A stretch of 64,000 nucleotides of DNA, from assembly GCA_017399165.1 (NCBI GenBank), contig JAFQEF010000079.1, forward strand, positions 14,005-78,004, written 5' to 3'. Shown piece after piece: positions 18,543 through 37,441 of the stretch; position 1 is the stretch's first letter; each line of letters starts with the position of its first letter. Made by a program: the position numbers and the translations under genes. This DNA is from Akkermansia sp. (lineage in GTDB: Bacteria; Verrucomicrobiota; Verrucomicrobiia; Verrucomicrobiales; Akkermansiaceae). The notes beneath the pieces were generated by a model. That model did not search any database. It was not told the DNA's origin and saw nothing but the letters and a program-made list of their open reading frames with translations.

Positions 18543-18565
18543 TCCCCCCATCGCCCCCTTCATCG

Positions 18566-18602
18566 CCCGCTGCTTAACAAAATAAGCAGCGGGCCATTTT
18601 TT
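18566..18602 (+). terminator. rho-independent terminator of the cysJ-like gene
   Basis: CCCGCTGCTTA (18566-18576) / loop acaaaa / TAAGCAGCGGG (18583-18593), then CCATTTTTT. Confidence 0.8.
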
Positions 18603-19623
18603 ATCGCACCCCGAAAAACGCGGAGGCCTCATGTCTTGTCACATGCATCGCATTAACGTAGCGAGTGCGCAGCAAATTCGGGCTGCTGTGCCCCATTTCT
18701 AACTGCAACTCCGGTAGATTCCGAAAATACGTTGCATGGTAAGTCGCAAAAGTATGGCGTAATACATCTGCCTGCCATGTCCTCAATCCGGCAGCTCTTC
18801 TTAATTTCTTCCAGCGGACGGTCCAGTTGCGGGGAATAATACGCCGCACACCTCGCAGTTTCCCCTTGCAATACAACGGTACTACACGCCCTCCACCGGT
18901 CTTGCTTACCACCGGGCGCACAACAACCTCCCCCTCTTTCCATCGAATATCCTGCGGGCTTAATCGGGCAACTTCTGCAGGCCGCAAGCCGCAATAAGTA
19001 AGCAAATGCAAAGATAAACGCATATCCGCATGCTCCGTCTTTGTTGCGGCGTCTTCCAGTTTTCGTATTTGTTGAAGAGTCAACGGCACTATCTCATTCT
19101 CGCTAACACTCGGTGTTTCAATATCATCCACAGGGTTTCCGGCACACCACCCGCGGCGCTTACCATATGCAAATATACTGTGTAATACAGCTCTGCCTTT
19201 TCGATAACTATGGGCACTACTGCCAAACGACTTTTGTAAGAGATTGCGGCATTCATCCACCCCCATCGCACGTAGCGGGCGTTCTCCCACTCCCTCCACC
19301 CGCAGCATCCTTGAGGTAAAGTGACGCAAATCCCGCAATGTTGTCGGCCGCCTCCCGGCTCGAGCCTCAATACTCAGCCTAGCAGCCTCTGCAAACGGCA
19401 CCGTCTTCTCTCGCGTTTCTATCACTTTTATCCCCTCCTCTACTACCTCCACACAAGCAATCTCATAATGAGCACTTCTTCCTTTTTGTCGTAGACGGGC
19501 TATTACAGAATACGCAACCTGCGCGGCTTCTACTAATCCTACACCACTCTTTTTCAACAGTGTAAGCGCTGCTAATTCTTCACAGCCTATCATTATATTC
19601 TCTTTCGTTTTTTTTGATTTCAT
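18601..19623 (-). CDS. tyrosine-type site-specific recombinase/integrase
   Basis: Catalytic signature GLRPAEVARL (Arg), LRHTFATYH (H-x-x-R) and MGHSSPNLLRTRY (His..Tyr). Start placed at ATG 19623 (MKSKKTKEN); the ORF stays open to 19758. Confidence 0.85.
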   Translation of the reverse strand: MKSKKTKENIMIGCEELAALTLLKKSGVGLVEAAQVAYSVIARLRQKGRSAHYEIACVEVVEEGIKVIETREKTVPFAEAARLSIEARAGRRPTTLRDLRHFTSRMLRVEGVGERPLRAMGVDECRNLLQKSFGSSAHSYRKGRAVLHSIFAYGKRRGWCAGNPVDDIETPSVSENEIVPLTLQQIRKLEDAATKTEHADMRLSLHLLTYCGLRPAEVARLSPQDIRWKEGEVVVRPVVSKTGGGRVVPLYCKGKLRGVRRIIPRNWTVRWKKLRRAAGLRTWQADVLRHTFATYHATYFRNLPELQLEMGHSSPNLLRTRYVNAMHVTRHEASAFFGVR

Positions 19624-19816
19624 GGTGATATGTGTGCATTTATTATGCTGGTCAAGAGAAAAATACCTATTTTTGCTCTTTGAGACGCAGTAATTCAATC
19701 TATAATGAGGAAGAGAACAAATCAATAGTTCTAAAGCTTCCGCAGGCACTTTTCTCAAATAAAGAAATCCTTAAAATATTGATGATAACAATGTTGCAAA
19801 AAGATAAGGTTAATAA

Positions 19817-22800
19817 ATGCTGATAATATCGGGTGCGCGCGCGGGAGAATGCTCGGCGTATCAACCTACAACCACGGCAATCTCCATGCAAACGCACCAA
19901 CTACACACCTTTACACCTGTGATAGACCCCGCGCCGGAGCGAATTGCCGTAGTGAGTGCCGAAGCAACGTTGAAGGGATTCAGCGAAATTCCCAAAAGCT
20001 ACCTAAAAGCGGAGTGGCAGTTAATACTCAGTGATAATTGTTTAGAGAGATGGGGGCTGCTGCGAGCCGATAAAGAGCATAAGTTTCTAAATAGTTTACA
20101 AGGACAACGCTGGGCACAACAATGTTTGAATTGGCTGCAAAGTGGGCGCGTAACAGTTAAGTTTGCGCCCCTCAAAAACGGGAGAGAGTTTATCCTATTT
20201 CATCAAGGAGCAAACGTCAGCGGACGGCATGTTCCCGGGCTATTATCCGCAGAAGGCGTAGGCGCCATGCCACACGGAGGGCTTTTTGAAGAAACAGAGG
20301 CCATGACCACCGAACAGGCAGAGCTACAAAGTGCTCGTTTTGACGCAGTATGGCAGCATGCAGAGCAACTCAGAACCTGCGATAAATTACAAAATCAGCT
20401 TGAGTTTTTGGCAAGTACTCACCCGGCAGAATGGGTATATATGCGTGCATGCCAAATCTTTGTGCCCGATGCCGAGGTGCAGGAGGATTACTTAAACACC
20501 CCGCCGGGATACACGGATACAGCTATATGGCAAGAGCTGTTCAGCTTCCAGAAAGACGGCGTTAAGGGCGTCATTAACAAAATACTCAAATACAATGGCT
20601 GCATTCTGGCAGATAGTGTGGGTCTCGGCAAAACGTACGAGGCACTTGCCGTTATCAAATACTTTGCCCGCAAAGGCGATAAAGTGCTGGTGCTTGCACC
20701 CAAACGGCTGCGCGACAACTGGGCCTTATTTACCCTCAACGACAATCGAAATCCCTTTGCGGATGATCCGTTCCATTACGACCTGCTCAACCACACCGAC
20801 ATTAACCGAACAAGCGGCAAAAGCGGGGATATTGACCTTTCACACTTCCGGTGGGAGCATTTTGACCTCATCGTCATTGATGAGTCACACAACTTCCGCA
20901 ACAAAGGTTCACGTTACCAACGCTTGCTCGACCAAGTCATCAATCGTGGCGCCAAAACTAAAATTCTTTTACTCACTGCCACCCCCGTCAATAACCGCGT
21001 TACAGATTTGCGCAATCAAATCAACCTCATAGCCGGTGGCAAGGATGAGCACCTCAAACCCTACGGCATTGAAAGCATTACAGAAACCGCTCGCCAAGCG
21101 CAAAAAAAGTTTGCAGTATGGGCTAAGACACCCGAGGCGGAGCGTGTACAGACCTCTCTTTTACATGTCTTGGGGCAAGATTATATTCATCTGTTAGACC
21201 TCCTCACCATCGCGCGCTCCCGCAAGCACATCGAGGCGCATTACAACAGCAGCTCCGCCGTTGCAATGTTCCCCAAACGCCTCCTCCCCATCAACCTTTA
21301 CCCCGATAGCGGGGACAACGGGTTCTTGCCTGTACAGGCCATCAGTAAAACCCTGCAAAAGCTCCACATGGCGGTCTACAGGCCCCTCTATTATGTGCTC
21401 GAGCACCGCAAGGAAGCCTACCTGCAAAAATATAACCAGCAAATCGGCGCTAACCTGGAGTTCTCTCAAATTGACCGCGAAAAGAGCCTTTCTGCCCTCA
21501 TGACGGTCAACCTCCTCAAGCGTATGGAAAGCTCGGTAGAGGCATACGCCATCACCCTCGGCAAGCAAATAGAAAACACAAAGGCTCAACTCGCCATGCT
21601 GCAAAATGCGCAGCAGGTTGTATGGGATAACGATATATCTGAGGAAGACATTGACGACGAGGACGACGCCCTGCTCGGCTCTGCAAAAATCAAGGTGGCT
21701 CTGCAAGATTTAGACCGCCACCGCTTGAAACATGATTTGCAAGAGGACCTCAACTACTTGCAACAATTGCAACAGCACATTGATGTTGTGCGAAAAACGC
21801 AAGACTCCAAACTCAAACAATTAAGGGAGATTATCAGCCGCAAGATTACTGCCCCGCTCAATCCCGGCAATAAAAAGGTAATCATCTTTACGGCTTTTGC
21901 TGATACGGCTACCTACCTGTTCGAAAAGCTTTCCCCTTGGCTCTTGCAAGAGTATGGTCTGCACACGGCCATGGTAAGCGGCGCCAAACGCAACCGCTGC
22001 ACGCTTGACGGCGTACGCACAGGCCAAGATTCCCTGCTCTCTGCCTTTTCTCCGCGTTCCAAGAAGTTTGATCTCGCCCGCACCGCAGGTCGGCAAATTG
22101 ATGTTCTTATTGCAACGGATTGTGTTTCAGAAGGTCAGAACTTGCAAGATTGCGACTTCTTGATTCACGCAGATATTCATTGGAACCCCGTACGCATCAT
22201 CCAGCGTTTAGGTCGTATAGACCGTATCGGCAGCACTAACACCTGCATTCAAATGGTCAACATGTGGCCCGTTGCAGAGCTGAACGAGTATATCAACCTA
22301 GAGCAACGCGTTAAGGCAAAAATGGACCTCCTCTCCACTTCTGCCACGGGAGATGACAACTTACTCAGTAAAGAAGCCCGGCAAGACCTCGAGTTCCGTT
22401 CCCGTCAACTCCTGCGCCTTAAAGATGAGGTGATTAATCTGGAGGACGTCGCCGCAGATGCCTCTATCACCAACCTGAATTTCCAACAACACCGCAGCGA
22501 CCTGCAAAACTTTTGTCTGGCTTCGCCATCTCATCGCCCCGACAAATGGCCATCTTACCTCGGAGCCGTTGCTGCTGCATCGGTCGGGGTTGCTGCCGGG
22601 GCGTTTTTCCTGCTCAAATCCCACGCTAAGATTCAGGCAGACAAAGCCTATCCCTATGCCCCTTATTACCTCCTCCATGTGGCGGAGGATGGCTCCGTTT
22701 TGCCGCAATTCCGCAATGTGCGAGACATGCTCGACCTCCTGCAATCTGTCACCCACGGCTCACGAGAGGAGAGCGAATCCTGCCGAGCGAACTTTACTCA

Positions 22801-22996
22801 AATCACCAAAAACGGTGCAGACATGGCACGCTACACCAAGCTGCTTTCTGCCGCCGTGCGCGAATTGATGGGTGAGGAAAAAGCAAGTATAGGCCGCAGT
22901 GCTTTTGCTGCGGGTAAACCACTGCTGGGGCGTGGTCGCACGGCCCGTGGTGTAGACGATGTTGAAATTATTACCTGGCTTGCCGTTATACCATGA
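19817..22996 (+). CDS. SNF2/Rad54-family (SF2) helicase/translocase, 1059 aa
   Basis: Motif I DSVGLGKT (GLGKT 20621-20635), motif II VIDESHNFRN (DESH 20879-20890), motif III LLLTATPVNN and motif VI QRLGRIDRIG (22202-22231). Start is uncertain (ATG 19817 or 19886). Confidence 0.85.
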   Translation: MLIISGARAGECSAYQPTTTAISMQTHQLHTFTPVIDPAPERIAVVSAEATLKGFSEIPKSYLKAEWQLILSDNCLERWGLLRADKEHKFLNSLQGQRWAQQCLNWLQSGRVTVKFAPLKNGREFILFHQGANVSGRHVPGLLSAEGVGAMPHGGLFEETEAMTTEQAELQSARFDAVWQHAEQLRTCDKLQNQLEFLASTHPAEWVYMRACQIFVPDAEVQEDYLNTPPGYTDTAIWQELFSFQKDGVKGVINKILKYNGCILADSVGLGKTYEALAVIKYFARKGDKVLVLAPKRLRDNWALFTLNDNRNPFADDPFHYDLLNHTDINRTSGKSGDIDLSHFRWEHFDLIVIDESHNFRNKGSRYQRLLDQVINRGAKTKILLLTATPVNNRVTDLRNQINLIAGGKDEHLKPYGIESITETARQAQKKFAVWAKTPEAERVQTSLLHVLGQDYIHLLDLLTIARSRKHIEAHYNSSSAVAMFPKRLLPINLYPDSGDNGFLPVQAISKTLQKLHMAVYRPLYYVLEHRKEAYLQKYNQQIGANLEFSQIDREKSLSALMTVNLLKRMESSVEAYAITLGKQIENTKAQLAMLQNAQQVVWDNDISEEDIDDEDDALLGSAKIKVALQDLDRHRLKHDLQEDLNYLQQLQQHIDVVRKTQDSKLKQLREIISRKITAPLNPGNKKVIIFTAFADTATYLFEKLSPWLLQEYGLHTAMVSGAKRNRCTLDGVRTGQDSLLSAFSPRSKKFDLARTAGRQIDVLIATDCVSEGQNLQDCDFLIHADIHWNPVRIIQRLGRIDRIGSTNTCIQMVNMWPVAELNEYINLEQRVKAKMDLLSTSATGDDNLLSKEARQDLEFRSRQLLRLKDEVINLEDVAADASITNLNFQQHRSDLQNFCLASPSHRPDKWPSYLGAVAAASVGVAAGAFFLLKSHAKIQADKAYPYAPYYLLHVAEDGSVLPQFRNVRDMLDLLQSVTHGSREESESCRANFTQITKNGADMARYTKLLSAAVRELMGEEKASIGRSAFAAGKPLLGRGRTARGVDDVEIITWLAVIP

Positions 22997-23724
22997 TGCA
23001 CCCACTCATCCGGCAAATGCTGCCCGCCGCCATAGCAGATATCTTTGCCACTGTCAACAAAGAGGATATCGTTTCAAACTGTGCTTCAAAACGCGGTGAA
23101 GGTGTATTGATTCTTGAGCAGGTAAAATCTGCCCGCTATACTTGCATTTATGATGCCATTTGGCCCGATATCCCGGAATCGGAAGATGCCGTTGCGCTGA
23201 TGATTTTTTATGTGTGTTTGAACGCAGAGTGTACCACTCCCCAGCGCAACAGGATAACGGAGCTCTTACACCGAGGTTCCGGCAATCCATTGTTGTTGTT
23301 CATTCAACATAAAAATGACGTTTATTTGTCTGCCCGCTTTGGCGAGCATTTTGTCAAAGTGTTATTGCCCGCGCAATTACCCCCTGCCTTCGTGCAAGAG
23401 ATGGATATTCGCCAAGGCTTTCCCGCCCATTTGCGTGCCCTTTACAACCGTTGGATATGTGCGCTCTATGCCCTTAACACGGCTACCGATAAACAGTTGC
23501 TGTCCATCGCTGGCAATATCAACTATTGCTCCCTCCCCACACCACAGCAGGCCCAACAACAACATGCAGTTGTTGCCGCGCTTTTGCAACAATTATCTGC
23601 CGTGCGTGCGCAGTTAAACGCTTGCCGACTTAATGCGAGCAAACGTGTCCCCCTCGGCAATTTGCGTCATTCTCTTATCAATCAGCTTATTAATCTATTA
23701 CCCCCTCAAAATGAAAACTCCTGA
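22993..23724 (+). CDS. hypothetical protein (243 aa) translationally coupled between the SNF2 helicase and mod
   Basis: Its ATG overlaps the SNF2 stop (ATGA, 22993-22996) and its stop lies 14 nt inside mod. No motif recognised. Size and context are reminiscent of DUF4391-type proteins, from memory and unverified. Confidence 0.6.
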   Translation: MMHPLIRQMLPAAIADIFATVNKEDIVSNCASKRGEGVLILEQVKSARYTCIYDAIWPDIPESEDAVALMIFYVCLNAECTTPQRNRITELLHRGSGNPLLLFIQHKNDVYLSARFGEHFVKVLLPAQLPPAFVQEMDIRQGFPAHLRALYNRWICALYALNTATDKQLLSIAGNINYCSLPTPQQAQQQHAVVAALLQQLSAVRAQLNACRLNASKRVPLGNLRHSLINQLINLLPPQNENS

Positions 23725-25630
23725 AAAACTTACGTTGAACTCTCCCGAGCTCCAGTCCCAGTCCCCCATCTCGGGTAACTTGGCTAAATTACAGCTACTC
23801 TTCCCCTCGGTCGTGCGTGAGGGAAAGGTAGATTTTGATGCCCTGCGTCAACTGCTCGGCGACGATGTTGCCAAAGAGAATGAACTCTTCGGCCTGCAAT
23901 GGCACGGCAAAGCACGCGCCCGCCGTAATGCCCTTACTCCCTCCCTCGGCACCCTACGCCCCTGTAAAGAGGAGTCTAAAAATTGGGATAACACCAAGAA
24001 TCTCTATATTGAGGGCGATAATCTCGAGGTGCTCAAGCTCCTCCAAAAATCTTACGCCGGTAAGGTGAAAATGATTTATATCGACCCTCCTTATAATACC
24101 GGCAATGAATTCGTTTACCCCGATGATTATCAAAACGGCATCCAAAATTATCTGAATCTGACAGGCCAGCAGGATAAATTCAAAGCCAATGCTGAAACCA
24201 GTGGCCGCTATCACACCGATTGGCTCAATATGATGTACCCCCGCCTTATGCTCGCTCGCGAGTTGCTGAGCGATGATGGGGTGATTTTTATTAGTATTGA
24301 TGACCATGAAGATAGTAATTTACTCCAGTGCTGCAATGAGATTTTCGGAAGTAAAAATTTCATTGCTCAACTAATATGGCAAAGAGCATTTTCCCCGAAA
24401 AATGATGCAAGATATGTTTCTAACAGCCATGATTACATACTGATGTTTGCTAAGAATATAGAAACATTTAGGATTGGAAGATTAGAACGTACCGAAGAAG
24501 CAAACGCAAGATATTCCAATCCGGACAATGATCCCAGAGGAGTATGGATGTCAAGCGATATCTCCGTTAAAACATATAACGAAGAATGCGATTATCCAAT
24601 TACGACTCCTTCAGGAAGAGTCGTAGAGCCTCCAGCAGGACGCTGCTGGAGGCTCTCGCAAAACGCGTTTTGCGAGAGACTCCGAGATGGGAGAATTTGG
24701 TTTGGCCCCGATGGAGACGGAACGCCTAGAATCAAGAGATTCTTATCAGAACTACGTTTTGAAGGCATGGCTCCAACATCAATATTACTACATAAAGAAG
24801 TAGGGCATAGCCAGGAAGGTGCTCAAGAAGTTGTATCTTTATTTGAGAACAAAGGCGTATTTGATGGGCCCAAACCAGTTCGATTGCTGGAACGACTATT
24901 GACACTCGCTAATCTTGAAGATGATTCTATAGTTGTAGATTTCTTTTCAGGCTCAGCCACAACAGCTCACGCTATACTCAAATATAACGCAGAAAAAAAT
25001 AAAAAATGCAGATTCATAATGACGCAAATGCCCGAAACTTGCGACAATGACTCAACAGCCGCGAAAGCCGGGTATGCGAACATCTGCGAGATAGGCAAGG
25101 AGCGCATACGGAGAGCGGGAGAAAAGGTAAAGCCAGAAGCAGGGCTTGACGGGCAGAATTTGGATGTAGGGTTCCGCGTCTTTAAGCTGGACACCAGCAA
25201 CGTGATGCCATGGAGCACCGAGCCGGGGCAATTGAACCTGCAACTGGAGAACGAAAGCAACCTGCGGCCGGAGCGCACGAGCGAAGATATTTTTTACGAA
25301 GTATTGCTGAAACAAGGCATAGAGCTGACGGAAGACAGTCGCAATAAGGAGATTGCGGGGTACACGGTGTATAGCTTGGGCTACGGCTTATATTATTGTT
25401 GCTTTGACGCGCACATCGGCATGGAAGCACAAGAGCTGGCAGCAGGCATCGCACGCTGGCATGAGGAAGAAGACCCCGACGGCAAGGACTGCGTGGTCTA
25501 TGTGCGAGATAGTGCTTTTGACAGCAGCAACACCATGCAGGGGGTAAACGGAGATGAGGGGGATGCACGCAAAAAGAGCTTTTGCCAAACGCTGGAGCAA
25601 AGCGGCATACTGAAAGTAAAAGCATTCTGA
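23711..25630 (+). CDS. mod: Type III restriction-modification methyltransferase (Mod), beta-class N6A/N4C MTase
   Basis: Motif IV IYIDPPYNTG (DPPY 24083-24094) precedes motif I DFFSGSATTAHA (24938-24958), which is the beta-class order. Start set at ATG 23711 (MKTPEKL); the ORF is open from 23633. Confidence 0.9.
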   Translation: MKTPEKLTLNSPELQSQSPISGNLAKLQLLFPSVVREGKVDFDALRQLLGDDVAKENELFGLQWHGKARARRNALTPSLGTLRPCKEESKNWDNTKNLYIEGDNLEVLKLLQKSYAGKVKMIYIDPPYNTGNEFVYPDDYQNGIQNYLNLTGQQDKFKANAETSGRYHTDWLNMMYPRLMLARELLSDDGVIFISIDDHEDSNLLQCCNEIFGSKNFIAQLIWQRAFSPKNDARYVSNSHDYILMFAKNIETFRIGRLERTEEANARYSNPDNDPRGVWMSSDISVKTYNEECDYPITTPSGRVVEPPAGRCWRLSQNAFCERLRDGRIWFGPDGDGTPRIKRFLSELRFEGMAPTSILLHKEVGHSQEGAQEVVSLFENKGVFDGPKPVRLLERLLTLANLEDDSIVVDFFSGSATTAHAILKYNAEKNKKCRFIMTQMPETCDNDSTAAKAGYANICEIGKERIRRAGEKVKPEAGLDGQNLDVGFRVFKLDTSNVMPWSTEPGQLNLQLENESNLRPERTSEDIFYEVLLKQGIELTEDSRNKEIAGYTVYSLGYGLYYCCFDAHIGMEAQELAAGIARWHEEEDPDGKDCVVYVRDSAFDSSNTMQGVNGDEGDARKKSFCQTLEQSGILKVKAF

Positions 25631-25634
25631 AGCC

Positions 25635-28600
25635 ATGAGCAAGGTAAAGTTGCAATTTGAGGCAGATTTAGCGTACCAACACCGAGCCATCGAGGCAGTA
25701 TGCAATTTGTTTGAGGGGCAAGGCCATGCCGTGAGCCCCTTCACCGTGATGCTACCGCCAAAGGAGGGGGAGCTGGGACTGCGTGACACAGATATGGGCA
25801 CCGGCAACAAGCTGAGCCTTACAGATGAAGAGATATTGCAGAACCTGAAAGGTATACAAGAGCGCAACGGGCAAGTTATCTCTGAGAGTAAAAGCTACCT
25901 TGCCGAACAAACCGTAGGCAAAAAGAAAAAAAGCGTGCTGCGCGCCGCATGGGATTTTACGGTAGAGATGGAAACCGGCACGGGCAAGACCTACGTTTAC
26001 CTGCGCAGCATATACGAGCTGCACAAGCGCTACGGGTTCAGCAAGTTTATCATAGTAGTGCCGAGCATTGCCATTAAAGAGGGCGTATTCAAGAGCATCG
26101 AGTTGATGCGCGAGCACTTTCGCACGCTGTATGACGGCGTGGCCATGCATGCCACCTTGTACGACAGTGCCAAGATAGGCGAGGTGTGCAACTATGCGCG
26201 CAGCAACAAGTTGGAGATTATGGTGTGCACCATACAAGCCATAACCGCCATACAAAAAGAAGCCGAGCACAATGACACCCCCAAGCGAGGGGCTCAGCGT
26301 GTGATGTACACCGCCAACGAGAAAACGGGGGGAATGGAGCCCATTCATTACATACGCCAATGCCGCCCCATTGTTATTGTGGATGAGCCGCAAAACGTGG
26401 GAGAAAAGGGAGAGCTGAACGGCATTGCCCTGCTGGAGCCCTTGTGCACCTTGCGCTACTCTGCCACCCACCGCAACTTATGCCACCCGCTTTACACCCT
26501 GAACGCCGTAGAGGCGAGCAACCAAAAGCTGGTAAAACACATTGAAGTAGCAGGTTGCACCATCAGCCAAAACACAAGCGGGTTACCCTACATTAAAGTA
26601 CTGAAAGTTGGCGAAAAAAAGGGAGAAACTTATGCCAAACTAAGATTATTGCATGATTTGCAAGGCAAAAGCAAAGATATGGAGGCACACGTGGGTGACA
26701 GCTTGGATCTTGTAACCCGGAATGAGATATACACCGGTATCGTCGTGCAACAGATACAGGAGAACGGCGTGCTCTTTTCTCCCGAGAGCATCGGATTCAT
26801 CGGCACGGGAGAGGACAACGCCGGCAGCGACAACGCCGTGTTAGTGGAGCAAATGATACGCGAAACCATCAAAAAGCATCTTGAGAGGGCAGCTCTTTTA
26901 CGCCCCAAGGGTATCAAGGTGCTGAGTCTGTTCTTTTTGGACAGCGTGTCAAACTACCGTGAGTATGATGAAAACGGGCGGAAGCCCGGTCGGTATGCCG
27001 AGATTTTTGAAAGAGAGTTCAATAAATGGTCAAGCTTGCCTCAATACCGCAGCTTATGGGCAGAAGGTGCGCCACCCGCAGCCGATACCGTGCACGACGG
27101 GTATTTCTCAATAGACAAAAAAGGCAAAAAAGAGATTTGGACGAACACCAAAGAAAACGACCGCAGCGATGCGGCCAAGCGCGCTTACGAACTGATTATG
27201 CGCGACAAGGAACGCTTATTGAGTTTGGACGAGCCCTTGCAATTCATCTTTTCTCACACGGCCTTGCGAGAGGGCTGGGATAATCCGAATGTGTTTCAGG
27301 TGTGTGTGTTGAGGTCGGATTTTGAGACCGCGAGTGAAATATCGCGCCGTCAAATCATTGGTCGAGGTCTGCGTATATGCGTGGATAAACACGGCCGCCG
27401 CGTGCGAGAGGAGGGTGTCAACACCCTGACGGTTGTTGCCAAAGAGCATTTCGAAGAGTTTGCTAAAAAGCTGCAACATGAATATGAGGAAGACGGCATG
27501 AAGTTCGGCGTTGTTACGCCGCAGCTATTGGGGGCCGTTACCCTGCCCACCCGCCAAGGAGAAGAAGAATTACTGGGGCAAGAACGCGGCAAAATGGTAT
27601 TGGCAAGCTGCACAGCTGCCGACATTATTGATGCACAAGGCAAACTGAGTGATACTGCCAACCAACAGTTACAGGCCGGAACCTTTATACTACCTGACAG
27701 TTGTTTGGATGCTGTACCCGAAGAACAACGCCCCGCCATGCACCACGCACTGTTACAGGTGTTGATGGATGCCACACGCAAGGTATCAGTTACCGATGCG
27801 AACAAACGCCACGAGTTGAAAGTTCGCGATAAATGGAGGGATAACGCGCATTTCCTGGCCTTGTGGGAGCGCATTAAAACACGCACCATTTTCGAAGTAA
27901 AGTTCAGCACGGAGACCTTGATACGCCGAGTGGTCAACAACGTACAGCAAGATTTACTGAATATTCCACCGGTGTTGCTCAGCATGGGTATAGCAGGCAT
28001 CACTTACAGAAACGGCGGCATCAGAGCGGAGCTGAAAGGCACCAAGCACACCGTGGTCGACACCTCGAACAACCCCGTGCCGGATATTGTATCGGAAATA
28101 GTGGACAAGACGGAGCTGACCCGCCGCACGGTTGTGCGAATTTTACGAGGATTACCCGAAGCGGTATTGAACAAAGTGCGCGATAACTGTGCCGAGTTCT
28201 TGCGCAGAATCATCAGAGGCATACAACGAGAGCTGGAGGCTCTGATGGTAGATGGCATTTGTTACCGCCCTGTCATTATAGGCGAACGCGAGTACGGCAA
28301 ACAGCTCTTCCTGACACCACAGCAGGTGGGTGACATCAAAAATGTGATTGCAACCTCAGAAAAATGTCTTACGGAACAAATTGTCTGTGACTCAGGCTCA
28401 AAACCCGAGCGCAATTTTGCGCGTGACGCAGACTTGGATGAAAACGTAAAGTTCTATATCAAATTGCCCGACAGTTTCACCATACCCACACCACTGGGTA
28501 AATATAACCCGGACTGGGCTATGGTAAAACACGAAGATGGGCAGGATATTCTTTACTTCGTTGTAGAAACGAAAGGCAGTAACCTTTCCGGTGATTTGCG

Positions 28601-28718
28601 AACAAAAGAAGATTTGAAAATTCAATGTGCACGTGCACATTTTAAAACACTGGCAGAGCATATCGGCAATCCCATCCGTTTCTGTGGACCGGTCACGAAG
28701 CTACGCGACGTATTTTAA
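25635..28718 (+). CDS. res: Type III restriction enzyme Res subunit (SF2 helicase + C-terminal PD-(D/E)xK nuclease)
   Basis: Contains ETGTGKT (25977-25991), IVIVDEPQN (DEPQ 26382-26393), LRYSATH, REGWDNPNV and QIIGRGLR. The C-terminal nuclease motif is NPDWAM..YFVVETKGS (D 28512-28514; E-T-K 28566-28574). Confidence 0.9.
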   Translation: MSKVKLQFEADLAYQHRAIEAVCNLFEGQGHAVSPFTVMLPPKEGELGLRDTDMGTGNKLSLTDEEILQNLKGIQERNGQVISESKSYLAEQTVGKKKKSVLRAAWDFTVEMETGTGKTYVYLRSIYELHKRYGFSKFIIVVPSIAIKEGVFKSIELMREHFRTLYDGVAMHATLYDSAKIGEVCNYARSNKLEIMVCTIQAITAIQKEAEHNDTPKRGAQRVMYTANEKTGGMEPIHYIRQCRPIVIVDEPQNVGEKGELNGIALLEPLCTLRYSATHRNLCHPLYTLNAVEASNQKLVKHIEVAGCTISQNTSGLPYIKVLKVGEKKGETYAKLRLLHDLQGKSKDMEAHVGDSLDLVTRNEIYTGIVVQQIQENGVLFSPESIGFIGTGEDNAGSDNAVLVEQMIRETIKKHLERAALLRPKGIKVLSLFFLDSVSNYREYDENGRKPGRYAEIFEREFNKWSSLPQYRSLWAEGAPPAADTVHDGYFSIDKKGKKEIWTNTKENDRSDAAKRAYELIMRDKERLLSLDEPLQFIFSHTALREGWDNPNVFQVCVLRSDFETASEISRRQIIGRGLRICVDKHGRRVREEGVNTLTVVAKEHFEEFAKKLQHEYEEDGMKFGVVTPQLLGAVTLPTRQGEEELLGQERGKMVLASCTAADIIDAQGKLSDTANQQLQAGTFILPDSCLDAVPEEQRPAMHHALLQVLMDATRKVSVTDANKRHELKVRDKWRDNAHFLALWERIKTRTIFEVKFSTETLIRRVVNNVQQDLLNIPPVLLSMGIAGITYRNGGIRAELKGTKHTVVDTSNNPVPDIVSEIVDKTELTRRTVVRILRGLPEAVLNKVRDNCAEFLRRIIRGIQRELEALMVDGICYRPVIIGEREYGKQLFLTPQQVGDIKNVIATSEKCLTEQIVCDSGSKPERNFARDADLDENVKFYIKLPDSFTIPTPLGKYNPDWAMVKHEDGQDILYFVVETKGSNLSGDLRTKEDLKIQCARAHFKTLAEHIGNPIRFCGPVTKLRDVF

Positions 28719-28833: not shown

Positions 28834-29934
28834 TCAGTATTTTTCCACCACTTTCATCATGGCGTCCATTTGAGCCTCGATGGACTCGACGAGGGCAATC
28901 TGGGTGCGGCAGCGGTCCAGGTTGTGCTCGGGGCGCTTAATCTTGAAGTAGGTGTCGCCCTCCAGATAGTCTGTGAGGAAGCGCATACCGCACTCCATGG
29001 TAAGCAGCTTACCGGAGAACGGAAGCAGCTCTTTCTCCAGCGGGGTGAGGAAGGTAGCGGCCTCGCAGTATCCCTTGGCAAGAGCCTCAAAGTACTCCAT
29101 GCGCATGGTAACAAGGGAGGTGTTCTTCTCATCCTCTGCAGCGGGGGATGTGGAGGTGCGGATCATGTCACCGAAGTCATACAGGGAGGAGCCCGGCATG
29201 GTGGTGTCCAAGTCAATCACGCAAATGCCCTCGCCCGTTACGTCATCAAGCATCACGTTGTTGAGCTTGGTGTCGTTGTGGGTGACACGCAGGGGCAGCT
29301 CGCCGCTGGCAAGGTAGTTTACAACCTTGTGGCAATCTGCCTCGCGGGAGAGGAACCAATCGATTTCCTTTTGCACGGTAGCAGCACGCCCGCAAGCATC
29401 CGCTGCCAAAGCGGCCTGGAAGTTCTTGAAGCGCTTGGTGGTGTTATGGAAATCGGGGATGGTCTCGAAGAGCGGAGCGCCGGGAAGGTTGGCACCCAGT
29501 TTCTGGAAGTTACCAAAGGCACGAGCCACCTCAATGCACTGGCCCGGGTTCTCAATCATATCGTAGGTGCGGGCACGGTCAATGAAGGGGTATACACGCC
29601 ATACATTGCCGTCGGCATCCTGAGCGTAGGGCTTGCCATCCTTAGCGTTTACGATAGTAAGGGTGCGGCGGTAGGCCTCTTTGCAGCCCTCCTCCAACAG
29701 CACGCGCAGAGCTTCATCCGTAACACGCTTCACGTTTTCCATGAGCGGGATGGGTTGCTTGAACACGTTGCTGTTAATGCGCTGTAAGATGTAGCTTACA
29801 CGCAGACCTGCCTGGTCTACGATAACACGGAAAGTGTCATTAATATGACCGGAGCCGTAAGGAGCCCCGCAGACAAAGTCGCCACGGAGGTCAAACAGGC
29901 CGGATATGGATTTGATATCGTACATAATCTCCAA
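28834..29934 (-). CDS. nahK: N-acetylhexosamine 1-kinase (NahK/LnpB-like, APH-fold anomeric sugar kinase)
   Basis: Contains LRVTHNDTKLNNVMLD, IDLDTTMPGSSLYDFGD, ELLPFSGKLLTMECGMRFLTDYLEGDTYF and PEHNLDRCRTQI. These closely match Bifidobacterium NahK as I recall it. Confidence 0.75.
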   Translation of the reverse strand: MEIMYDIKSISGLFDLRGDFVCGAPYGSGHINDTFRVIVDQAGLRVSYILQRINSNVFKQPIPLMENVKRVTDEALRVLLEEGCKEAYRRTLTIVNAKDGKPYAQDADGNVWRVYPFIDRARTYDMIENPGQCIEVARAFGNFQKLGANLPGAPLFETIPDFHNTTKRFKNFQAALAADACGRAATVQKEIDWFLSREADCHKVVNYLASGELPLRVTHNDTKLNNVMLDDVTGEGICVIDLDTTMPGSSLYDFGDMIRTSTSPAAEDEKNTSLVTMRMEYFEALAKGYCEAATFLTPLEKELLPFSGKLLTMECGMRFLTDYLEGDTYFKIKRPEHNLDRCRTQIALVESIEAQMDAMMKVVEKY

Positions 29935-29937
29935 AAA

Positions 29938-30846
29938 TTAACCGAGTTTGGCGGGATATACACCATCCTCTACCAGCTTGGCAATGCTCTCTACCACAGC
30001 GGGTTTATCGCTCGGGTAGGTAACACCCAACCAGTTAGCGGTGGTCTTGATAACGCTGCAATCTGCCTTGCCGTTGTGAATCAGTTCATCCACAACAGTG
30101 GGGATGTAGCACTCGCTCTTCAGCTCTGCACCGTGCTCAGCCATGAAGTGAGTGAAGTGCTCCTGAATGCGGGAAATGAAGCTGGCAGGGAATACCCAGA
30201 AGTTCATGGAAACGAGCTCCTCGGGGTCAACGGGCTTACGCTCGCCGGAAAGGCTGTCGCCACGGCAAACGCCGTCTTCCTCCATCTTAATCTTGGTATA
30301 CTCTTCCACGCTGTCCAAGTAGCCATCCTTAATACCGCAGATACCGCGGTTTACATCGCCGTGGTCGCTGAGGGTGTTCTTAAGGGGATAACCAATCATG
30401 CCGTAGTGCTCCTTGCAGGGGCAACCGGGCTCTGCGGTAAGGAACTCGGCAGCCTTTACAAAGGCGTCTGCACCGTAGAAGTCATCGGCATTCACCACGC
30501 CGAACGGCTCCTTAACAACATTGCGGGCGGCAAGCAGAGCGTGGGCAGTGCCCCAAGGCTTTACGCGACCCTCGGGCACGCTGTACCCCTCGGGCAGGTC
30601 ATCCAAGCACTGGAATGCGTAGTCTACCTCAATCTTGTCGGCAAAGCGAGCGCCGACTTGGCTCTTAAAGGCCTCCTCAAAGTCCTTGCGGATGATGAAC
30701 ACCACCTTACCGAACCCGGCACGAATGGCATCATACACGGAGTAATCAAGAATAACTTCACCATTGGGCCCCATGGGGTCCAGCTGCTTAAGGCCACCGT
30801 AACGGCTGCCCATACCTGCTGCGAGAACAAGAAGTGTAGGTTTCAT
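29938..30846 (-). CDS. sugar-1-phosphate nucleotidyltransferase (UDP-sugar pyrophosphorylase-like)
   Basis: N-terminal LVLAAGMGSRYGGLKQL (G-x-G-x-R NTP-transferase motif) and VVNADDFYG. Ends 3 nt upstream of the nahK-like gene on the same strand. Confidence 0.75.
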   Translation of the reverse strand: MKPTLLVLAAGMGSRYGGLKQLDPMGPNGEVILDYSVYDAIRAGFGKVVFIIRKDFEEAFKSQVGARFADKIEVDYAFQCLDDLPEGYSVPEGRVKPWGTAHALLAARNVVKEPFGVVNADDFYGADAFVKAAEFLTAEPGCPCKEHYGMIGYPLKNTLSDHGDVNRGICGIKDGYLDSVEEYTKIKMEEDGVCRGDSLSGERKPVDPEELVSMNFWVFPASFISRIQEHFTHFMAEHGAELKSECYIPTVVDELIHNGKADCSVIKTTANWLGVTYPSDKPAVVESIAKLVEDGVYPAKLG

Positions 30847-30904
30847 AATAAAAGTGTAGTACTATCGGTACGCACTCATTCTACCTGTTCCTGTGGAACA
30901 TTGC

Positions 30905-30950
30905 AAGCAAAAAGCGCACGAAACAGGGTGATTTTCACCGTTTCGTGCGC
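30905..30950 (-). terminator. rho-independent terminator of metH
   Basis: GCGCACGAAAC (30914-30924) pairs with GTTTCGTGCGC (30940-30950), with an inner GGTG/CACC extension. On the minus strand it is followed by TTTTTGCTT. Confidence 0.75.
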
Positions 30951-30971
30951 TTAATCATCACGCCGTCAGCG

Positions 30972-33900
30972 TTAAACCGTCAACTTATGCCCGGAGCGGG
31001 ATTCATAATCGGCGCGTTGGTCCTCACCAATGGGGCCCACCGCAAAGTAGCGAGCCTCGGGGTGATTGAAGATGAGGGCACAGATGGCAGAGGACGGCTG
31101 CATCATGCACGTTTCTGTAAGCGTGGTACCGGTATGTGCCGAGGCATTCAGCAAAGAGAACACCGTGCGTTTCTCCTGATGGTCGGGCTGAGAGGGGTAG
31201 CCACATGCGGGGCGAACCATGGCAGAGCCTGCAATGGGCCAAACTTGTTCCACACAATCCTGCGTACACTCAGCCAAGGCCTCGGCCAACATGTTGGCAA
31301 CGGCAGCTATCAGCAGCGCGTTGTAGGGATCATTAGCAGCATTGAGCTCTGCGCTCCACTCATCTGCACCGGTGATAGCCATTTGCATGGCACCGACATA
31401 ACCGTTTGACGTGCCAACAAAATCCGATAGTGCTACACGCGGATTATCACTAATCTTTTGCTGACGGAGAGTATACAATACCGTACCGCCCTGCACCTCA
31501 ATATCATCCTCATGGCGAGCGGCCGGCCATATACCGAAACATGAGCGGGCTTGGATGCGGTTCTCTGCTAAGGCTCGTTTCAAAATAGCCTCTGCATCGG
31601 CACGCAGTTTAGCAGCCTCCTGCTTTTTCTCCTCCGTACGTGCGGCATGCATACCGAACGTGCGCAGGGTGATGCTCCAGTCCGCCTTATCAAGCAATTG
31701 TTGCCACGTAAGGGGGAAATCCGGTTGAGGATGGTGGCAAGAACATCCGGCGGGCACACCTACGGTGAACACACCCGTGCGCAGCGGGATCGGTTGAGCA
31801 GCTGGCGATTGCAAAGCGCGGGTGCGAGACTCTGCCAAGCTGTACAGAGGAATCTCTTTTTGTTCAAACTCAGCACATAAGCGAGCTTGCTCCGCTTTAT
31901 ATTCTGCAATAAACGCCCCTTTACCACTACCGCAGAGAGCCGTTGCAACGGGTACTATTGTGGAGGCATCCGCCGTTTGCACAACAACTCCGGCAGGATA
32001 ATGGGGCGCAAGTTTGAGCGCCGTATGCAGCGGGCTTGTGGTTGCCCCACCCACCAACAGGGGGGTATCCATACCCGCTGCCTGCATGGCGGCGGCCACG
32101 GCGGCCATTTCATCCAAAGACGGCGTAATCAGCCCCGAGAGTGCCACCAAATCCGCCTTTTCACGCAAAGCGCATTCAATGATTTGCTCTTTGGGAACCA
32201 TCACCCCCAAATCTACCACACGGAACCCGTTGCAGGCGAGCACCACGCTCACGATATTTTTACCGATGTCATGCACATCCCCCTTAACCGTTGCCAACAC
32301 CACGGTGGCAGCAGCCTTTTGTCCGGTCTGAGCAGACTCCAGCAAGGGGGTAAGAACCGCCACGCTTTGTTTCATCACGCGCGCACTCTTCACTACCTGA
32401 GGCAAGAACATTTTACCGCTGCCAAACAGCTCGCCCACCTGTTTCATGCCATCCATAAGGGGGCCTTCAATCACCTGCAAGGGTGAGCCACATACACCCA
32501 GCGCCTCCTGCGTGTCAGCCTCAATATGCTCGGTAATGCCGTTTACCAAAGCATGAGCCAAACGCTCTTGCACGGTAAGGGTACGCCAATCTGCCGTTTT
32601 CTTGGCAACCGGCGCAGGGGCCCCCGCCCCCGCAGCCTTGAGCGCGGCCTTGGCTTCCGCAAGCTCCTGAGCATAGGCAATCAGGCACTCGGTAGCATCC
32701 TCCGCGCTGTTGAGCAATACCTCTTCCACCAACTTACGGCGGTGGGCAGATATGGTATCATACTCTGTCATTAAGGCAGCATTAACAATGCATAAATCAA
32801 GCCCACCCAAGGCAGCATGGTGCAGGAATGCGCTGTGCATGGCTTCTCTCACCGGGTTATTGCCGCGGAAAGAGAAAGATACATTGGAGATACCGCCCGA
32901 GATATGGCAGAGCGGATGACAGCGAGTAATCTCTGCAGCGGCTTGGAAGAAATGCAACGCATGGTTAGCGTGCTCCGCAATGCCGGTGCCAACGGTTAAC
33001 ACGTTGGGGTCAAAAATGATATCCTCTGCCGGGAAACCCACTTGTTGCGTCAACAGCTCATACGCACGGTGAGCAATAGCCACGCGGTCATCATAAGCAC
33101 AGGCTTGCCCGTTTTCATCAAAGCCCATTACCACCACGGCTGCACCATAACGGCGTATGATACGAGCCTGGCGCAAAAACTCTGCCTCGCCGTTCTTTAA
33201 TGAAATGGAGTTGACAATACCTTTACCCTGTACACATTGCAGGCCGGCTTCAATCACCTCCCACTTAGAGGAATCAATCATGCAGGGCACGCGGGCAATA
33301 TCCGGCTCTGCCGCTACCAGGTTCAGGAATCGGGTCATGGCGGCAGGGCCGTCAATCATGCCATCGTCAAAGCAAAAATCCAACACGCGAGCGCCCTTTT
33401 GTACTTGCGCACGGGCAATCTCCAACGCCTCTTCATAGTTACCTTCTCGAATCAGGCGGGCAAATTTGGGAGAACCGGCCACGTTGCAACGCTCGCCAAT
33501 GAACATGATACCCTCCCGGCGGTGGTGACGGCACGGCTCCAACCCGGAGAGGTACAGCGTACCATCCGTCTCACGAGTGGGGATAACACGCGGGGCGTAC
33601 CCCTGCACCGCCTCTCGAATAGCTGCAATGTACTCGGGGGTGGTACCACAGCATCCACCCACAAAGTTCAGCAAGCCCTGTTGCGCGTAGTCCTTGAGGA
33701 TTCCGGCCATGTGGGCGGCAGAGTGAGCATAGCCGCTCGGGCTGAGGGGATCCGGCAAACCGGCATTGGGGTACATACTAATGGCGCAATCTGCCAACCC
33801 GCTGAGTTCCTGAGCAAAAGGCAACATCAAATCCGCGCCTAAAGCGCAGTTAATACCAATGGAAAGGGGGTTGGCATGGCGCACGGAATGCCAAAACGCC

Positions 33901-34661
33901 TCCACCGTTTGCCCGCTAAGGGTACGCCCGGCGCGGTCTGTTATGGTGAAACTAATCATCACGGGGGGCAGCTCACGCTCCTCCCTCAGCTCTGCAATGG
34001 CATACAGACAAGCCTTGGCATTGAGGGTATCAAAAATGGTTTCGAGCAGTAGAATATCCACCCCGCCATCAGCCAACGCTACCACTTGCTCGCGGTAGGC
34101 GCGCCGCAGCTGATCAAAGTTTACGGCACGGAATCCGGGGTCATTTACATCCGGGGAAAGAGAGGCCGTAACCGCCATGGGGCCAATGGAACCCGCCACC
34201 AAACGGGGGCGAGCATCCGCGGCTTCTGCGGCATCCGCCGCCTCACGTGCAATACGGCAGGCAGCCAAGTTCATTTCACGCACCAAAGCGGCCAAGGGCG
34301 CATCTGCCAGCACGCCTTCATAATAAGCTTGGTCATGCTTGGCGGGCTCTGCGTGGTGAAAGAACTCGTGCTGCCCGATGCTGGTGGCAGAAAAGGTGCA
34401 AGTACTGATGATATCTGACCCGGCATCGAGATATTGGCGACACATGTCACGAATGATATCCGGGCGGGTAATCACCAACACATCATTATTATTTTTAAGG
34501 TCTTGAGGATAGAGCGTACGGTCTTCAAATCTATCACCGCGGTAGTCGGACTCCTGCAAGCGGTGTTTTTGAATCATGGTACCCTGAGCGCCATCCAGCA
34601 TCAGGATGCGTTTTTGCATCTCGCTCTCCAGGTACTCTCTACGTGTTTGCGCCGTGCTCAT
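30972..34661 (-). CDS. metH: cobalamin-dependent methionine synthase (all four modules)
   Basis: About 1229 aa from ATG 34661 ([10 protein letters not shown]). Has the Hcy-binding module, the pterin-binding module, the B12-binding DxHxxG motif (GDVHDIGKN) and the AdoMet activation domain. Confidence 0.95.
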
Positions 34662-34678
34662 ATTCTGTATTTTCCTTT

Positions 34679-34709
34679 CAAAAAAAGGCGGCTTCACCCG
34701 GAAGCCGCC
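34679..34709 (-). terminator. rho-independent terminator after nuoA
   Basis: GGCGGCTTC (34687-34695) / loop acccg / GAAGCCGCC (34701-34709). On the minus strand it is followed by TTTTTTTG. Confidence 0.8.
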
Positions 34710-34748
34710 ATAAAAAAATTAACTCATATAAAAGCGACACCCGCAGGA

Positions 34749-35141
34749 TTAATCGCGGGGTTTCGGGTTACGGTGCCATACGATAACACCCTTGCCCAAA
34801 GCATAAAGATATGCCACCATCAACACACCGATAAAGGCGGTCATGGCACCGAAGGCTGCACCGTTATTCACCACAAAATCCTTGAAACCAAGTGCCCACG
34901 GATACAGGAAAATCACCTCCAAATCAAATACCAGGAACAGAATGGCTACCATGTAGTATTTGATGGAGAAGAAAGCAGGCGCGCCATCACCCTCGGGCAC
35001 GTTACCGCATTCATACGGAACGTCTTGAGCAGGGCGCAAACGTGCACGGCGGCCGAAAATCACACTGAGCACAATGATCATACCGGCGAATCCGAACCCG
35101 GCGACCAACTGAATCAAAGCTGAAAAATATTCCTGTAACAT
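34749..35141 (-). CDS. nuoA: NADH-quinone oxidoreductase subunit A
   Basis: 130 aa from ATG 35141 with three TM segments and the conserved PYECG..FSIKYYMVAILFLVFDLEVIFLYPWA. Confidence 0.85.
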   Translation of the reverse strand: MLQEYFSALIQLVAGFGFAGMIIVLSVIFGRRARLRPAQDVPYECGNVPEGDGAPAFFSIKYYMVAILFLVFDLEVIFLYPWALGFKDFVVNNGAAFGAMTAFIGVLMVAYLYALGKGVIVWHRNPKPRD

Positions 35142-35269
35142 GGCTGTAACGGGGCTTCTTTTACCACTTATTCTTCGCTTTGTCAAGTAAAAACCGCGGC
35201 AAAATCGTGGCGGATTATAGAGAAGTAGTCAAAAGTAAAGCTCTGCGTGTCTTATGGGGGAATTCCCGC

Positions 35270-35298
35270 TTGAAGAATCCGCAAATGTGTGCTAGTAT
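35270..35298 (+). promoter_or_regulatory. sigma70-like promoter candidate for uvrD
   Basis: TTGAAG (35270-35275), 17-nt spacer, TAGTAT (35293-35298) preceded by TGC (extended -10-like). GAGGAA lies upstream of ATG 35335. Confidence 0.35.
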
Positions 35299-35334
35299 CG
35301 CGCACCCACAGATAAGAGTGAGGAACGGCAAAAC

Positions 35335-37335: not shown

Positions 37336-37361
37336 TACCCTTATCCACCAACAATTTCAAC

Positions 37362-37385: not shown

Positions 37386-37441
37386 GCCTACTTTTCCTCT
37401 TGTCTTATGAACGATTTTCGTGCAATATGTGCGTTGCTGCT

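Follow-up and report, generated by a model that had tools for sequence, protein, structure and literature searches.

An integrase-associated Type III restriction-modification operon of Akkermansia with tightly linked SNF2 ATPase and DUF4391 genes

Restriction-modification (R-M) systems of Type III are described in a 2025 review as strictly two-gene systems (PMC12707154). Among the closest described counterparts of the locus considered here are BspHIV and Eco86II, two N4-methylcytosine (m4C) Type III systems in which an extra helicase-like ATPase is encoded immediately 5′ of mod (Murray et al. 2021; PMC8259958). This ATPase, which was not assigned a function, is found alongside Mod/Res in over 500 genomes; in BspHIV the gap between the helicase gene and mod is about 140 bp, and three proteins are described, with no small fourth gene (PMC8259958). 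Here we analyze a 64,000-nucleotide (nt) stretch of an Akkermansia sp. contig (assembly GCA_017399165.1, contig JAFQEF010000079.1, positions 14,005 to 78,004 of the forward strand). It is called the window below and is numbered from its first letter. Beside a divergent integrase gene it carries four consecutive genes, encoding a SNF2 ATPase, a DUF4391 protein and the Type III subunits Mod and Res.

The window system resembles the classical Type III enzymes (EcoP15I/EcoPI, Mod2Res1) in its beta-class Mod with a DPPY motif, its Res with a superfamily 2 (SF2) motor and a PD-(D/E)xK nuclease, its swappable target-recognition domain (TRD), and the placement of mod before res with a 4-nt gap. On the other hand, it has two further genes upstream, for a SNF2 protein with a predicted dead phospholipase D (PLD)-like domain and for DUF4391; its Res belongs to a distinct subfamily, and the unit sits beside an integrase gene. 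As in the systems of Murray et al. 2021, the window SNF2 protein is an extra SF2 ATPase encoded 5′ of mod that lacks an active nuclease motif, but here DUF4391 is encoded between it and mod. Because the pair of extra genes is co-inherited with mod and res in 94% of sampled complete loci, the window system is an extended rather than a two-gene Type III system. Type III enzymes are further characterized by hemimethylating an asymmetric site and by cleaving, with ATP, only where two unmethylated sites lie in inverse orientation. What is known from the genes is that it is an intact Type III R-M system with two extra, tightly linked genes. The reading we prefer, to which we give a probability of roughly 55%, is that it represents a mobile, integrase-borne, extended Type III R-M system with an obligate SNF2-DUF4391 pair.

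Organization and inheritance of the four genes

The preliminary description of this DNA, which was made from its letters and open reading frames (ORFs), had reported four same-strand ORFs that overlap or abut, and this was confirmed in both the ORF list and the sequence (Table 1). The SNF2 and DUF4391 genes share an ATGA overlap (22993-22996), the mod ATG (23711) lies 14 nt inside the DUF4391 ORF (stop TGA 23722-23724), and a 4-nt spacer separates the mod stop (TGA 25628-25630) from the res ATG (25635). A longer mod ORF runs from 23633, an unlikely start because the match to the PADLOC MTase_III model begins only at its residue 36 (model position 3) and because the mod genes of homologues are called at 639 amino acids (aa). 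Judging from its nearest homologue, which is called at 1036 aa, the true start of the SNF2 gene may be 19886 (M24, yielding 1036 aa) instead of 19817; an AAGG is present about 8 nt upstream of 19817 and none before 19886. No terminator-like site was found on the + strand within 19817-28718, which fits a single transcript. The four genes are one tightly coupled operon, and the window copy is a compact, intact Akkermansia example of a very common Type III R-M extension.

To follow this arrangement across genomes, relatives of the SNF2 protein were scanned for in one genome per species, and at least 594 genomes contain one; at least 8,000 protein clusters belong to the four-gene unit. Loci were then sampled as the 80 best matches on the SNF2 side and, from IMG/VR, as the 80 best matches on the Res side. 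Their genes were called with hidden Markov models built from verified cassettes, and loci with enough sequence were evaluated. The 80 best SNF2 loci cover more than 12 phyla, including archaea (Methanoregula). DUF4391 follows SNF2 in 68 of 71 SNF2-sampled loci, Mod is present in 60 of 62, and DUF4391, Mod and Res are all present in 49 of 52. Of the 59 evaluable Res-sampled loci, 47 contain the pair, 11 have Mod-Res without it, and one is partial. No locus among those sampled has SNF2 and DUF4391 without Mod-Res. The pair essentially never occurs without its modification-restriction partner, and DUF4391 occurs only with Type III Mod-Res. This dependence is asymmetric: the pair needs Mod-Res, and Mod-Res of the same clade can lack the pair.

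The apparent exceptions in the SNF2 sample are one locus in which a cargo insertion is followed by the contig end and two Chloroflexi loci (L089:8762-11314 and L092:8362-15794), which are the only true cases of SNF2 without DUF4391. In the latter two, a SNF2 protein of the same family (about 40% identical) is followed by a large Type IIG/MmeI-like protein (Eco57I/TaqI_C/N6_Mtase), with no DUF4391-Mod-Res. That SNF2 without DUF4391 is paired with a Type IIG methyltransferase fits a role for DUF4391 as a Type III-specific adaptor. In L092, two GmrSD-like genes and a gene for an AAA_15/DUF3696 ATPase come after the methyltransferase gene.

The linkage is also close at the level of individual junctions. 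In 31 of 49 loci the stop codon of SNF2 overlaps the start codon of DUF4391, usually by 4 nt, and in 48 of 49 the two are no more than 20 nt apart. The remotest DUF4391-like protein looked up (23% identity) has an equivalent context with 4-nt overlaps. Pairwise distances over 56 cassettes are strongly correlated for SNF2 and Res (r=0.89), SNF2 and DUF4391 (r=0.89), and Mod and Res (r=0.82), with a range of r 0.73-0.89 over all four proteins (Mantel p=0.001). The same order is annotated in an Erysipelothrix element, an Acetobacter plasmid, an archaeal Methanomethylovorans plasmid and an Enterococcus conjugative plasmid, as well as on E. coli plasmids and in two E. coli chromosomal lineages. In E. 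coli the cassette is all-or-nothing, with all four genes in 23/25 and 52/54 genomes, and carriers include CFT073 and ABU 83972. In E. coli UPEC 26-1 (L093) the cassette adjoins a tRNA-Leu gene and a decayed integrase gene amid fragments of BREX and of a phosphorothioate-dependent restriction gene; it is intact and of the four-gene layout, designated type A, and is identical in CFT073, ABU 83972, clone D i2/i14 and NCTC9022.

More than 100 independent loci show the same gene order and coupling, which puts the adjacency far beyond chance. The preliminary description had proposed that the two extra genes belong functionally with mod and res, and co-occurrence, fixed order, conserved coupling and co-divergence all support that proposal. 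The independent assortment that it named as a refutation is contradicted by a co-occurrence of 94-97% from the SNF2 side and 80% from the Res side. We therefore consider functional integration of the pair with Mod-Res highly probable. The novelty implied in that description was overstated: at least 594 species genomes have the architecture, that of E. coli CFT073 among them, and an extra helicase beside Type III systems had been pointed out in 2021 (PMC8259958). No description of the four-gene form was found in the searchable literature.

A second helper layout emerged from the pair-less Res-clade loci, six of which (6/11) carry a different SNF2 protein beside Mod-Res. This layout, designated type B, consists of a SNF2 protein of about 960 aa without the N-terminal domain, followed by Mod and Res without DUF4391, and it is often preceded by a small helix-turn-helix (HTH) gene. 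The type B SNF2 gene directly abuts mod in two of the six, plus one non-evaluable locus. Type B loci include L113, L118, L124-L126, L167, L174 (Salmonella IncFIB plasmid), L175 (Cupriavidus), L176 (E. coli STEC639) and L178 (E. coli 042). The layout is present in 63 plasmid records, and type-B-like helicases were found in 253 of 5,426 E. coli genomes, for example that of enteroaggregative E. coli (EAEC) 042. A comparison by hhalign, made to see whether the type B SNF2 protein hides a fused C-terminal DUF4391, gave a probability of 25%, which is not significant and is confined to a coiled-coil stretch. The helicase of Murray et al. 2021 best fits the type B layout. The genome of NCTC86 (Eco86II) is in the searched E. 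coli collection, and it is not among the matches to the three E. coli cassette lineages nor among the 60 listed type-B-like hits.

Features of the four proteins

The SNF2 protein matches Pfam SNF2-rel_dom (1.2e-14; 54.6 bits, gathering threshold (GA) 24.9), Helicase_C (2.4e-12; 47.5 bits, GA 23.5) and ResIII (8e-11), which places it in the SNF2 ATPase family, and it matches phrog_26785 at 2e-191. The nearest solved sequences are RapA (3.6e-12), SMARCA5, ISWI and Rad54-like proteins, all over the core only. Public sources have generic names only for the family (PGAP uses 'helicase-related protein'). The coordinates that the preliminary description gave for the SNF2 and Res motifs were all confirmed and fall on columns invariant across phyla (Table 1).

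The preliminary description had missed a predicted N-terminal PLD-like domain. Pfam gives no match to the N-terminal ~235 residues of the window protein, and family members P0119 and P0120 match PLDc_2 at residues 23-170 (26-30 bits; GA 27). An AlphaFold2 model of the N-domain, of moderate quality (pLDDT 66), has SauUSI as its top fold match, followed by NgoAVII-R, Nuc, Zucchini, NucT, BfiI and TDP1. The HxK(x)4D motif is absent from the window N-domain and from 135 of 137 family N-domains; the two remaining HxKxxxxD matches fall in a linker helix, and the inferred catalytic His column is mostly Gln. From these alignments and the model, the SNF2 protein is predicted to be an active motor fused to a nuclease-dead PLD-like domain. 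Because the PLD-like domain lacks catalytic residues, Res still has the sole nuclease motif of the cassette, as had originally been stated. The C-terminal region of the SNF2 protein is conserved within the family; its ~200 aa have no Pfam match and no family or fold assignment, and hhalign comparisons with DUF4391 and with the type B C-terminus were not significant.

The best PADLOC match of the SNF2 protein is the candidate 'HKD+Snf2' (1e-105). The predicted domain order of the window protein, a PLD-fold N-domain followed by an SF2/SNF2 motor, is also that of SauUSI, PADLOC 'HKD+Snf2' C3a139 and NCBIfam NF042964. However, the window PLD-like domain is without HxK (the PADLOC alignment starts at model position 162, past the HKD), and the window SNF2 protein is tied to DUF4391 and Type III Mod/Res rather than standing alone. 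Probable ancestors of the family are PLD-SNF2 nuclease-helicases that stood alone, in which coupling to Res would have made the nuclease redundant and let it decay. SNF2-type motors also serve DNA-modification defence in BREX type 3 (BrxHII), Hma (HmaA) and Dpd (DpdE). These give partial core matches; only the ATPase core is in common, whereas the partner genes differ. HmaA has an active nuclease and acts on its own (PMC11232893). MhgA of Bacteroidales integrative and conjugative elements (ICEs) was rejected as a counterpart, since it is a methylase-SNF2 fusion.

The 243-aa protein has a single Pfam match, to DUF4391 (PF14335), which is below threshold (E=0.013, 15.9 bits, GA 29.9) and spans profile positions 67-211 of 232. 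Homologues 45-48% identical to it carry PF14335, an exhaustive search with a subfamily profile reaches canonical DUF4391 proteins (1e-39 and 7e-56 on PF14335), and the syntenic small genes of distant cassettes match PF14335 at 6.5e-38 and 8.5e-59. By this profile transitivity and synteny, and despite the sub-threshold direct score, the window protein is a divergent member of the DUF4391 family, which the preliminary description had rightly suspected. A second word-indexed search for homologues, run with 39 aligned DUF4391 sequences, yielded a single further protein; the family is too divergent for a pattern scan built on canonical members. DUF4391 is the fastest-evolving component, with a mean identity of 25% versus 41-49% for the other three.

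The AlphaFold2 model of the window DUF4391 protein (pLDDT 94.7, pTM 0.90) has an alpha/beta core and, after it, a long helical hairpin. It has no Foldseek match at E<=1e-3 in the PDB or BFVD, and the sequence profile found no relative among PDB sequences. Across 160 family members there is no conserved catalytic-looking constellation, and the single conserved Glu of the family is Ala in the window protein. Because such a constellation is lacking, we infer from the family alignment and the model that DUF4391 is a non-enzyme, probably acting as an adaptor or sensor. PADLOC v2 has no model that matches the window protein. In the searchable literature the name DUF4391 occurs in two papers, an ISME J study of the host range of TM7x and the Goslar preprint, where DUF7941 is evidently meant. 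In the Erysipelothrix 'phage' phi1605, the DUF4391 gene (L006:12186-12899) is mis-annotated as 'methyl-accepting chemotaxis protein'. At another locus (L075:12928-19796), a 753-aa protein has DUF4391 as its N-terminal part. Proteins of 585 aa and 952 aa, which could be assigned to no family, are encoded next, and beyond them there is only a fragment of Mod. This locus may be a remodelled cassette.

Mod and Res are, by homology, unambiguous Type III subunits and relatives of EcoP15I. Mod matches Pfam N6_N4_Mtase (3.6e-34), PADLOC MTase_III (3.7e-207), EcoP15I Mod (1.6e-57) and H. pylori Mod (3.1e-77), and its DPPY at residue 125 (24083-24094) places it among beta-class N6/N4 methyltransferases. 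Res matches PADLOC REase_III (5.8e-265), Pfam RE_endonuc (1.4e-31) and ResIII (5e-12), and EcoP15I Res (3.1e-56); against NCBIfam PRK15483 it scores 334 bits (cutoff 564). The central ~250 residues of Mod are 6-38% identical to those encoded by the mod genes of L002 and L003, with flanks 90-100% identical, and SNF2, DUF4391 and Res are conserved between these relatives. This pattern indicates that the TRD of Mod has been swapped between close relatives, which would give them different specificities. As the TRD swaps while the pair stays conserved, the role of the accessory pair is independent of the sequence recognized. E. coli cassette variants that are 90-92% identical align in two pieces, with about 10% unmatched. 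With mod free of simple-sequence repeats, there is no sign of phase variation.

Table 1. Coordinates of the cassette, its motifs and the adjoining integrase gene in the window
Feature	Position	Strand	Details
Tyrosine recombinase/integrase gene	18601-19623	-	340 aa from ATG 19623; Pfam Phage_integrase 2.8e-13
Intergenic region	19624-19816		193 bp, AT-rich; between divergent integrase and SNF2 genes
SNF2 ATPase gene	19817-22996	+	1059 aa; ORF list
SNF2 N-terminal PLD-like domain (predicted)	19934-20461	+	~residues 40-215
SNF2 ATPase core	20516-22372	+	~residues 234-852
SNF2 motif I, GLGKT	20621-20635	+	G269-T273; invariant across phyla
SNF2 motif II, DESH	20879-20890	+	D355-H358; invariant across phyla
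SNF2 motif III, LTATPVNN		+	residues 386-393; invariant across phyla
SNF2 motif VI, QRLGRIDRIG	22202-22231	+	Q796..G805; family pattern QRxGRxDRxG invariant
SNF2 C-terminal region	22373-22993	+	~200 aa
DUF4391 gene	22993-23724	+	243 aa; ORF list
mod	23711-25630	+	639 aa; ORF list
res	25635-28718	+	1027 aa; ORF list
Res motif GTGKT	25977-25991	+	G115/G117/K118/T119; invariant column
Res motif DEPQ	26382-26393	+	residues 250-253; invariant column
Res motif QxxGRGLR		+	Q573..R580; invariant column
Res PD	28512-28514 (D)	+	residues 959-960; invariant column; PD-(D/E)xK endonuclease
Res ETK	28566-28574	+	E978-T979-K980; invariant column; PD-(D/E)xK endonuclease

Integrase, flanks and inserted cargo

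The integrase is the fifth element of the window cassette. Its listed ORF extends to 19758 (TTG), and the ATG at 19623 is the probable start. An integrase of 322-340 aa occupies the equivalent place in L001, L002 and L003, and the nearest relatives (small protein 70-98% identical) always have the order integrase on the minus strand, SNF2, DUF4391, Mod, Res. Because one near relative has different flanking genes, the integrase and the four genes move as a unit. The clade of the window cassette is known only from metagenomes and Akkermansia-like metagenome-assembled genomes, and a near-identity search against E. coli genomes and plasmids returned nothing. More widely, related cassettes are found on islands with an integrase, on ICEs and conjugative plasmids, on prophage-like contigs and on archaeal replicons.

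The region between the integrase and SNF2 genes presumably holds promoters, and counts of promoter-like matches in a scan of it were at shuffled expectation. It contains no small HTH gene; such a gene is found upstream of the cassette in L010, L012, L174 and L175. One of these HTH genes had raised the possibility of a link to MADS: PGAP labels the HTH_17 gene upstream of an E. coli cassette (L012:8129-8293) 'MAD1'. This is a mis-annotation. MADS is an unrelated eight-gene system (mad1-8, with a kinase, a specificity subunit, a methylase and MAD6-8) whose description has no SNF2 or Type III genes, and the only MADS-like label is in the E. coli relatives. The window system is not MADS.

The window cassette is flanked by housekeeping genes (MetH, Rep/UvrD, AhpC, AroB and a CysJ-like reductase). 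The products of two of these cluster at >=90% identity with proteins from Akkermansia/Akkermansiaceae metagenome-assembled genomes, which makes the host an uncultured Akkermansia-like bacterium. No tRNA genes were found in the window, and no convincing direct repeats flank the cassette. A strong GC-rich hairpin with a 12-bp stem and a T-run (18565-18594) separates the CysJ-like reductase gene from the integrase gene at their 3′ ends and is probably a bidirectional terminator that marks the left edge of the island. Between res and the AhpC/AroB genes, a stretch of about 9 kb (28834-38092) holds genes for an APH-like kinase (minus strand), an unassigned 369-aa ORF, MetH (minus strand), an unassigned 229-aa ORF and a Rep/UvrD helicase. 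It is missing from the equivalent site in L001, the nearest NCBI relative, where res is directly followed by AhpC; the difference could reflect a local rearrangement or a different island boundary. The analysis covered the 13-41 kb part of the window; outside that part the window contains a 1369-aa ORF at 1983-6092.

Unrelated same-strand genes are inserted at the junctions of about 40% of related cassettes, most often between mod and res (23/55), then between DUF4391 and mod (15/55) and between SNF2 and DUF4391 (6/55). The inserts include Schlafen/AlbA_2 with HATPase_c_4 (5 loci), Fic/DOC (4), RhuM (4), 23S-rRNA-IVP (3), GmrSD (2) and YhcG-PDDEXK (2), as well as AAA_13, AAA_21, KAP NTPase, AAA_14 with DUF4143, PDDEXK_9, UvrD-like, DUF2779, Macro, Bro-N, Abi_2 and PLDc_2 proteins. 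They were found in L016, L018, L022, L026, L027, L031, L033, L036, L053, L055, L058, L059, L066-L068, L073, L074, L076, L078-L080, L083-L086, L088 and L091; the window copy has no junction inserts. On the human gut contig MT836075.1 (L007:5373-6254), the gene inserted between DUF4391 and mod encodes a protein of 293 aa that matches TIR_2 below threshold (E 6.4e-5). Other defence genes use the cassette operon as a docking site. Embedded cargo is also a feature of Type I R-M loci, such as EcoprrI with its prrC gene, and the RhuM, Fic, Abi_2, GmrSD, YhcG, Schlafen/AlbA_2 and AAA_21 genes of the cassette relatives make up the repertoire that hsd operons also carry. The embedding host in the window relatives is a Type III operon, versus a Type I R-M locus in EcoprrI.

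Possible roles of the accessory pair

One mechanism would have the pair enhance restriction. DUF4391 would bind the SNF2 protein and dock it onto Mod2Res, and the SNF2 motor would use ATP to translocate along unmethylated DNA of an invader, directionally and with resistance to roadblocks. Res would stay the sole nuclease and Mod would still define self, so that restriction in vivo would be more efficient or broader than with a two-subunit enzyme that slides passively. Taken on its own, we put this mechanism forward tentatively, at somewhat less than an even chance. A more specific version, in which DUF4391 is an unrecognized adaptor fold that couples a nuclease-dead PLD-SNF2 protein to Mod2Res in a two-motor Type III holoenzyme, is more doubtful still. 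If it were true, the rules of restriction in vivo would differ from those of EcoP15I: such a holoenzyme might restrict DNA with sites in a single orientation, or protein-coated DNA, neither of which is caught by the diffusive two-site mechanism.

Several observations weigh against an extended system with an obligate pair and against the proposed mechanism. The pair is missing from about 19% of Res-clade loci, and both locus samples consist of best matches rather than random ones. Co-divergence can come from linkage alone, without physical contact, and the contacts among SNF2, DUF4391 and Mod2Res are purely postulated. The fold matches that suggest a PLD-like N-domain are individually weak (E 6.5e-3 to 0.6), and the model on which they are based is only of moderate quality (pLDDT 66). 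Finally, the extra ATPase of Eco86II, which may be of the type B kind, is unneeded for methylation and is absent from the fraction that cleaves in vitro (PMC8259958). Core R-M activity on this evidence needs no helper, and any role of the pair must therefore be a gain in vivo.

The same Eco86II result would suit a guard or back-up module, in which the pair watches the Type III enzyme or the invading DNA and triggers a second response upon inhibition or evasion of Mod/Res by a phage. PrrC, embedded in the EcoprrI Type I locus, is a model for a guard-type response. The rapid evolution of DUF4391 is as expected for contact with phage factors, and the presence of Abi_2, Fic, RhuM, TIR-like, AAA_21, KAP and GmrSD proteins in the operons of relatives marks the operon as a site of layered defence. 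However, no effector is apparent: the PLD-like domain is without its catalytic motif, DUF4391 is without conserved catalytic residues, and no toxin domain was detected. The strictly conserved ATPase motifs of the SNF2 protein, moreover, suggest work on DNA over signalling. We consider a guard role unlikely.

Similarly improbable, in our judgement, is a role in self-protection or establishment, in which the motor would drive Mod2Res off host DNA or hold it in check there (restriction alleviation). The cassette could then establish itself in new hosts whose DNA is unmethylated, and come through repair or recombination without autoimmunity. The consistent location of the cassette on mobile elements, the position of Res as the last gene of the operon in every case and the dispensability of the Eco86II helper for cleavage in vitro are all in keeping with this idea. 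Yet classical Type III systems use a translational delay and no motor (PMC12707154), many cassettes already have a small HTH controller, the pair-less Res-clade loci manage without such a device, and a 1059-aa ATPase plus an adaptor would be a costly solution.

It is very improbable that SNF2 and DUF4391 form a separate defence system and are no more than neighbours of Type III R-M within defence islands. Defence genes do cluster, Mod-Res does occur without the pair, and unrelated defence genes do insert within the operon, but the pair has neither a nuclease or effector of its own nor a single sampled locus to itself. The high co-occurrence, fixed order and 4-nt overlaps that chain the genes, and a co-divergence as tight as that of Mod with Res, argue further against mere neighbourhood. 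The suggestion in the preliminary description that the cassette stands between Type III R-M and DISARM, with SNF2 as the equivalent of DrmD, can be set aside as equally far-fetched: both class 1 DISARM (DrmD, DrmMI and DrmA/B/C) and the window system are methylation-based defences with a SNF2 ATPase, and DrmD models match part of the ATPase core (4e-40 in PADLOC; 4.4e-48), but these matches cover generic helicase lobes only and score far below the NCBIfam cutoffs (NF038317, 164 bits versus 610; NF038318, 106 versus 950), the best match is 'HKD+Snf2', the N-domain of the window protein is predicted to be PLD-like, there are no DrmA/DUF1998, DrmB or DrmC genes in the cassette or its flanks, and the methylase is a Type III Mod instead of DrmMI or DrmMII, with Res as the nuclease.

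An extra Type III helicase was foreshadowed in 2021, and two helper layouts, type A and type B, can now be told apart. The question posed by the helicase of Murray et al. 2021 has become testable, with type A available in CFT073 and ABU 83972 and type B in EAEC 042; because E. coli CFT073 holds the cassette, the function of the pair is experimentally accessible. Current defence-finder tools would tag just Mod and Res, and thus overlook half of the system. The four-gene unit makes up a large share of one major Res clade and challenges the decades-old view of Type III R-M as a two-gene system. Should the two-motor holoenzyme prove true, it would constitute a new and very common R-M subtype and would explain the 'third helicase' of 2021.

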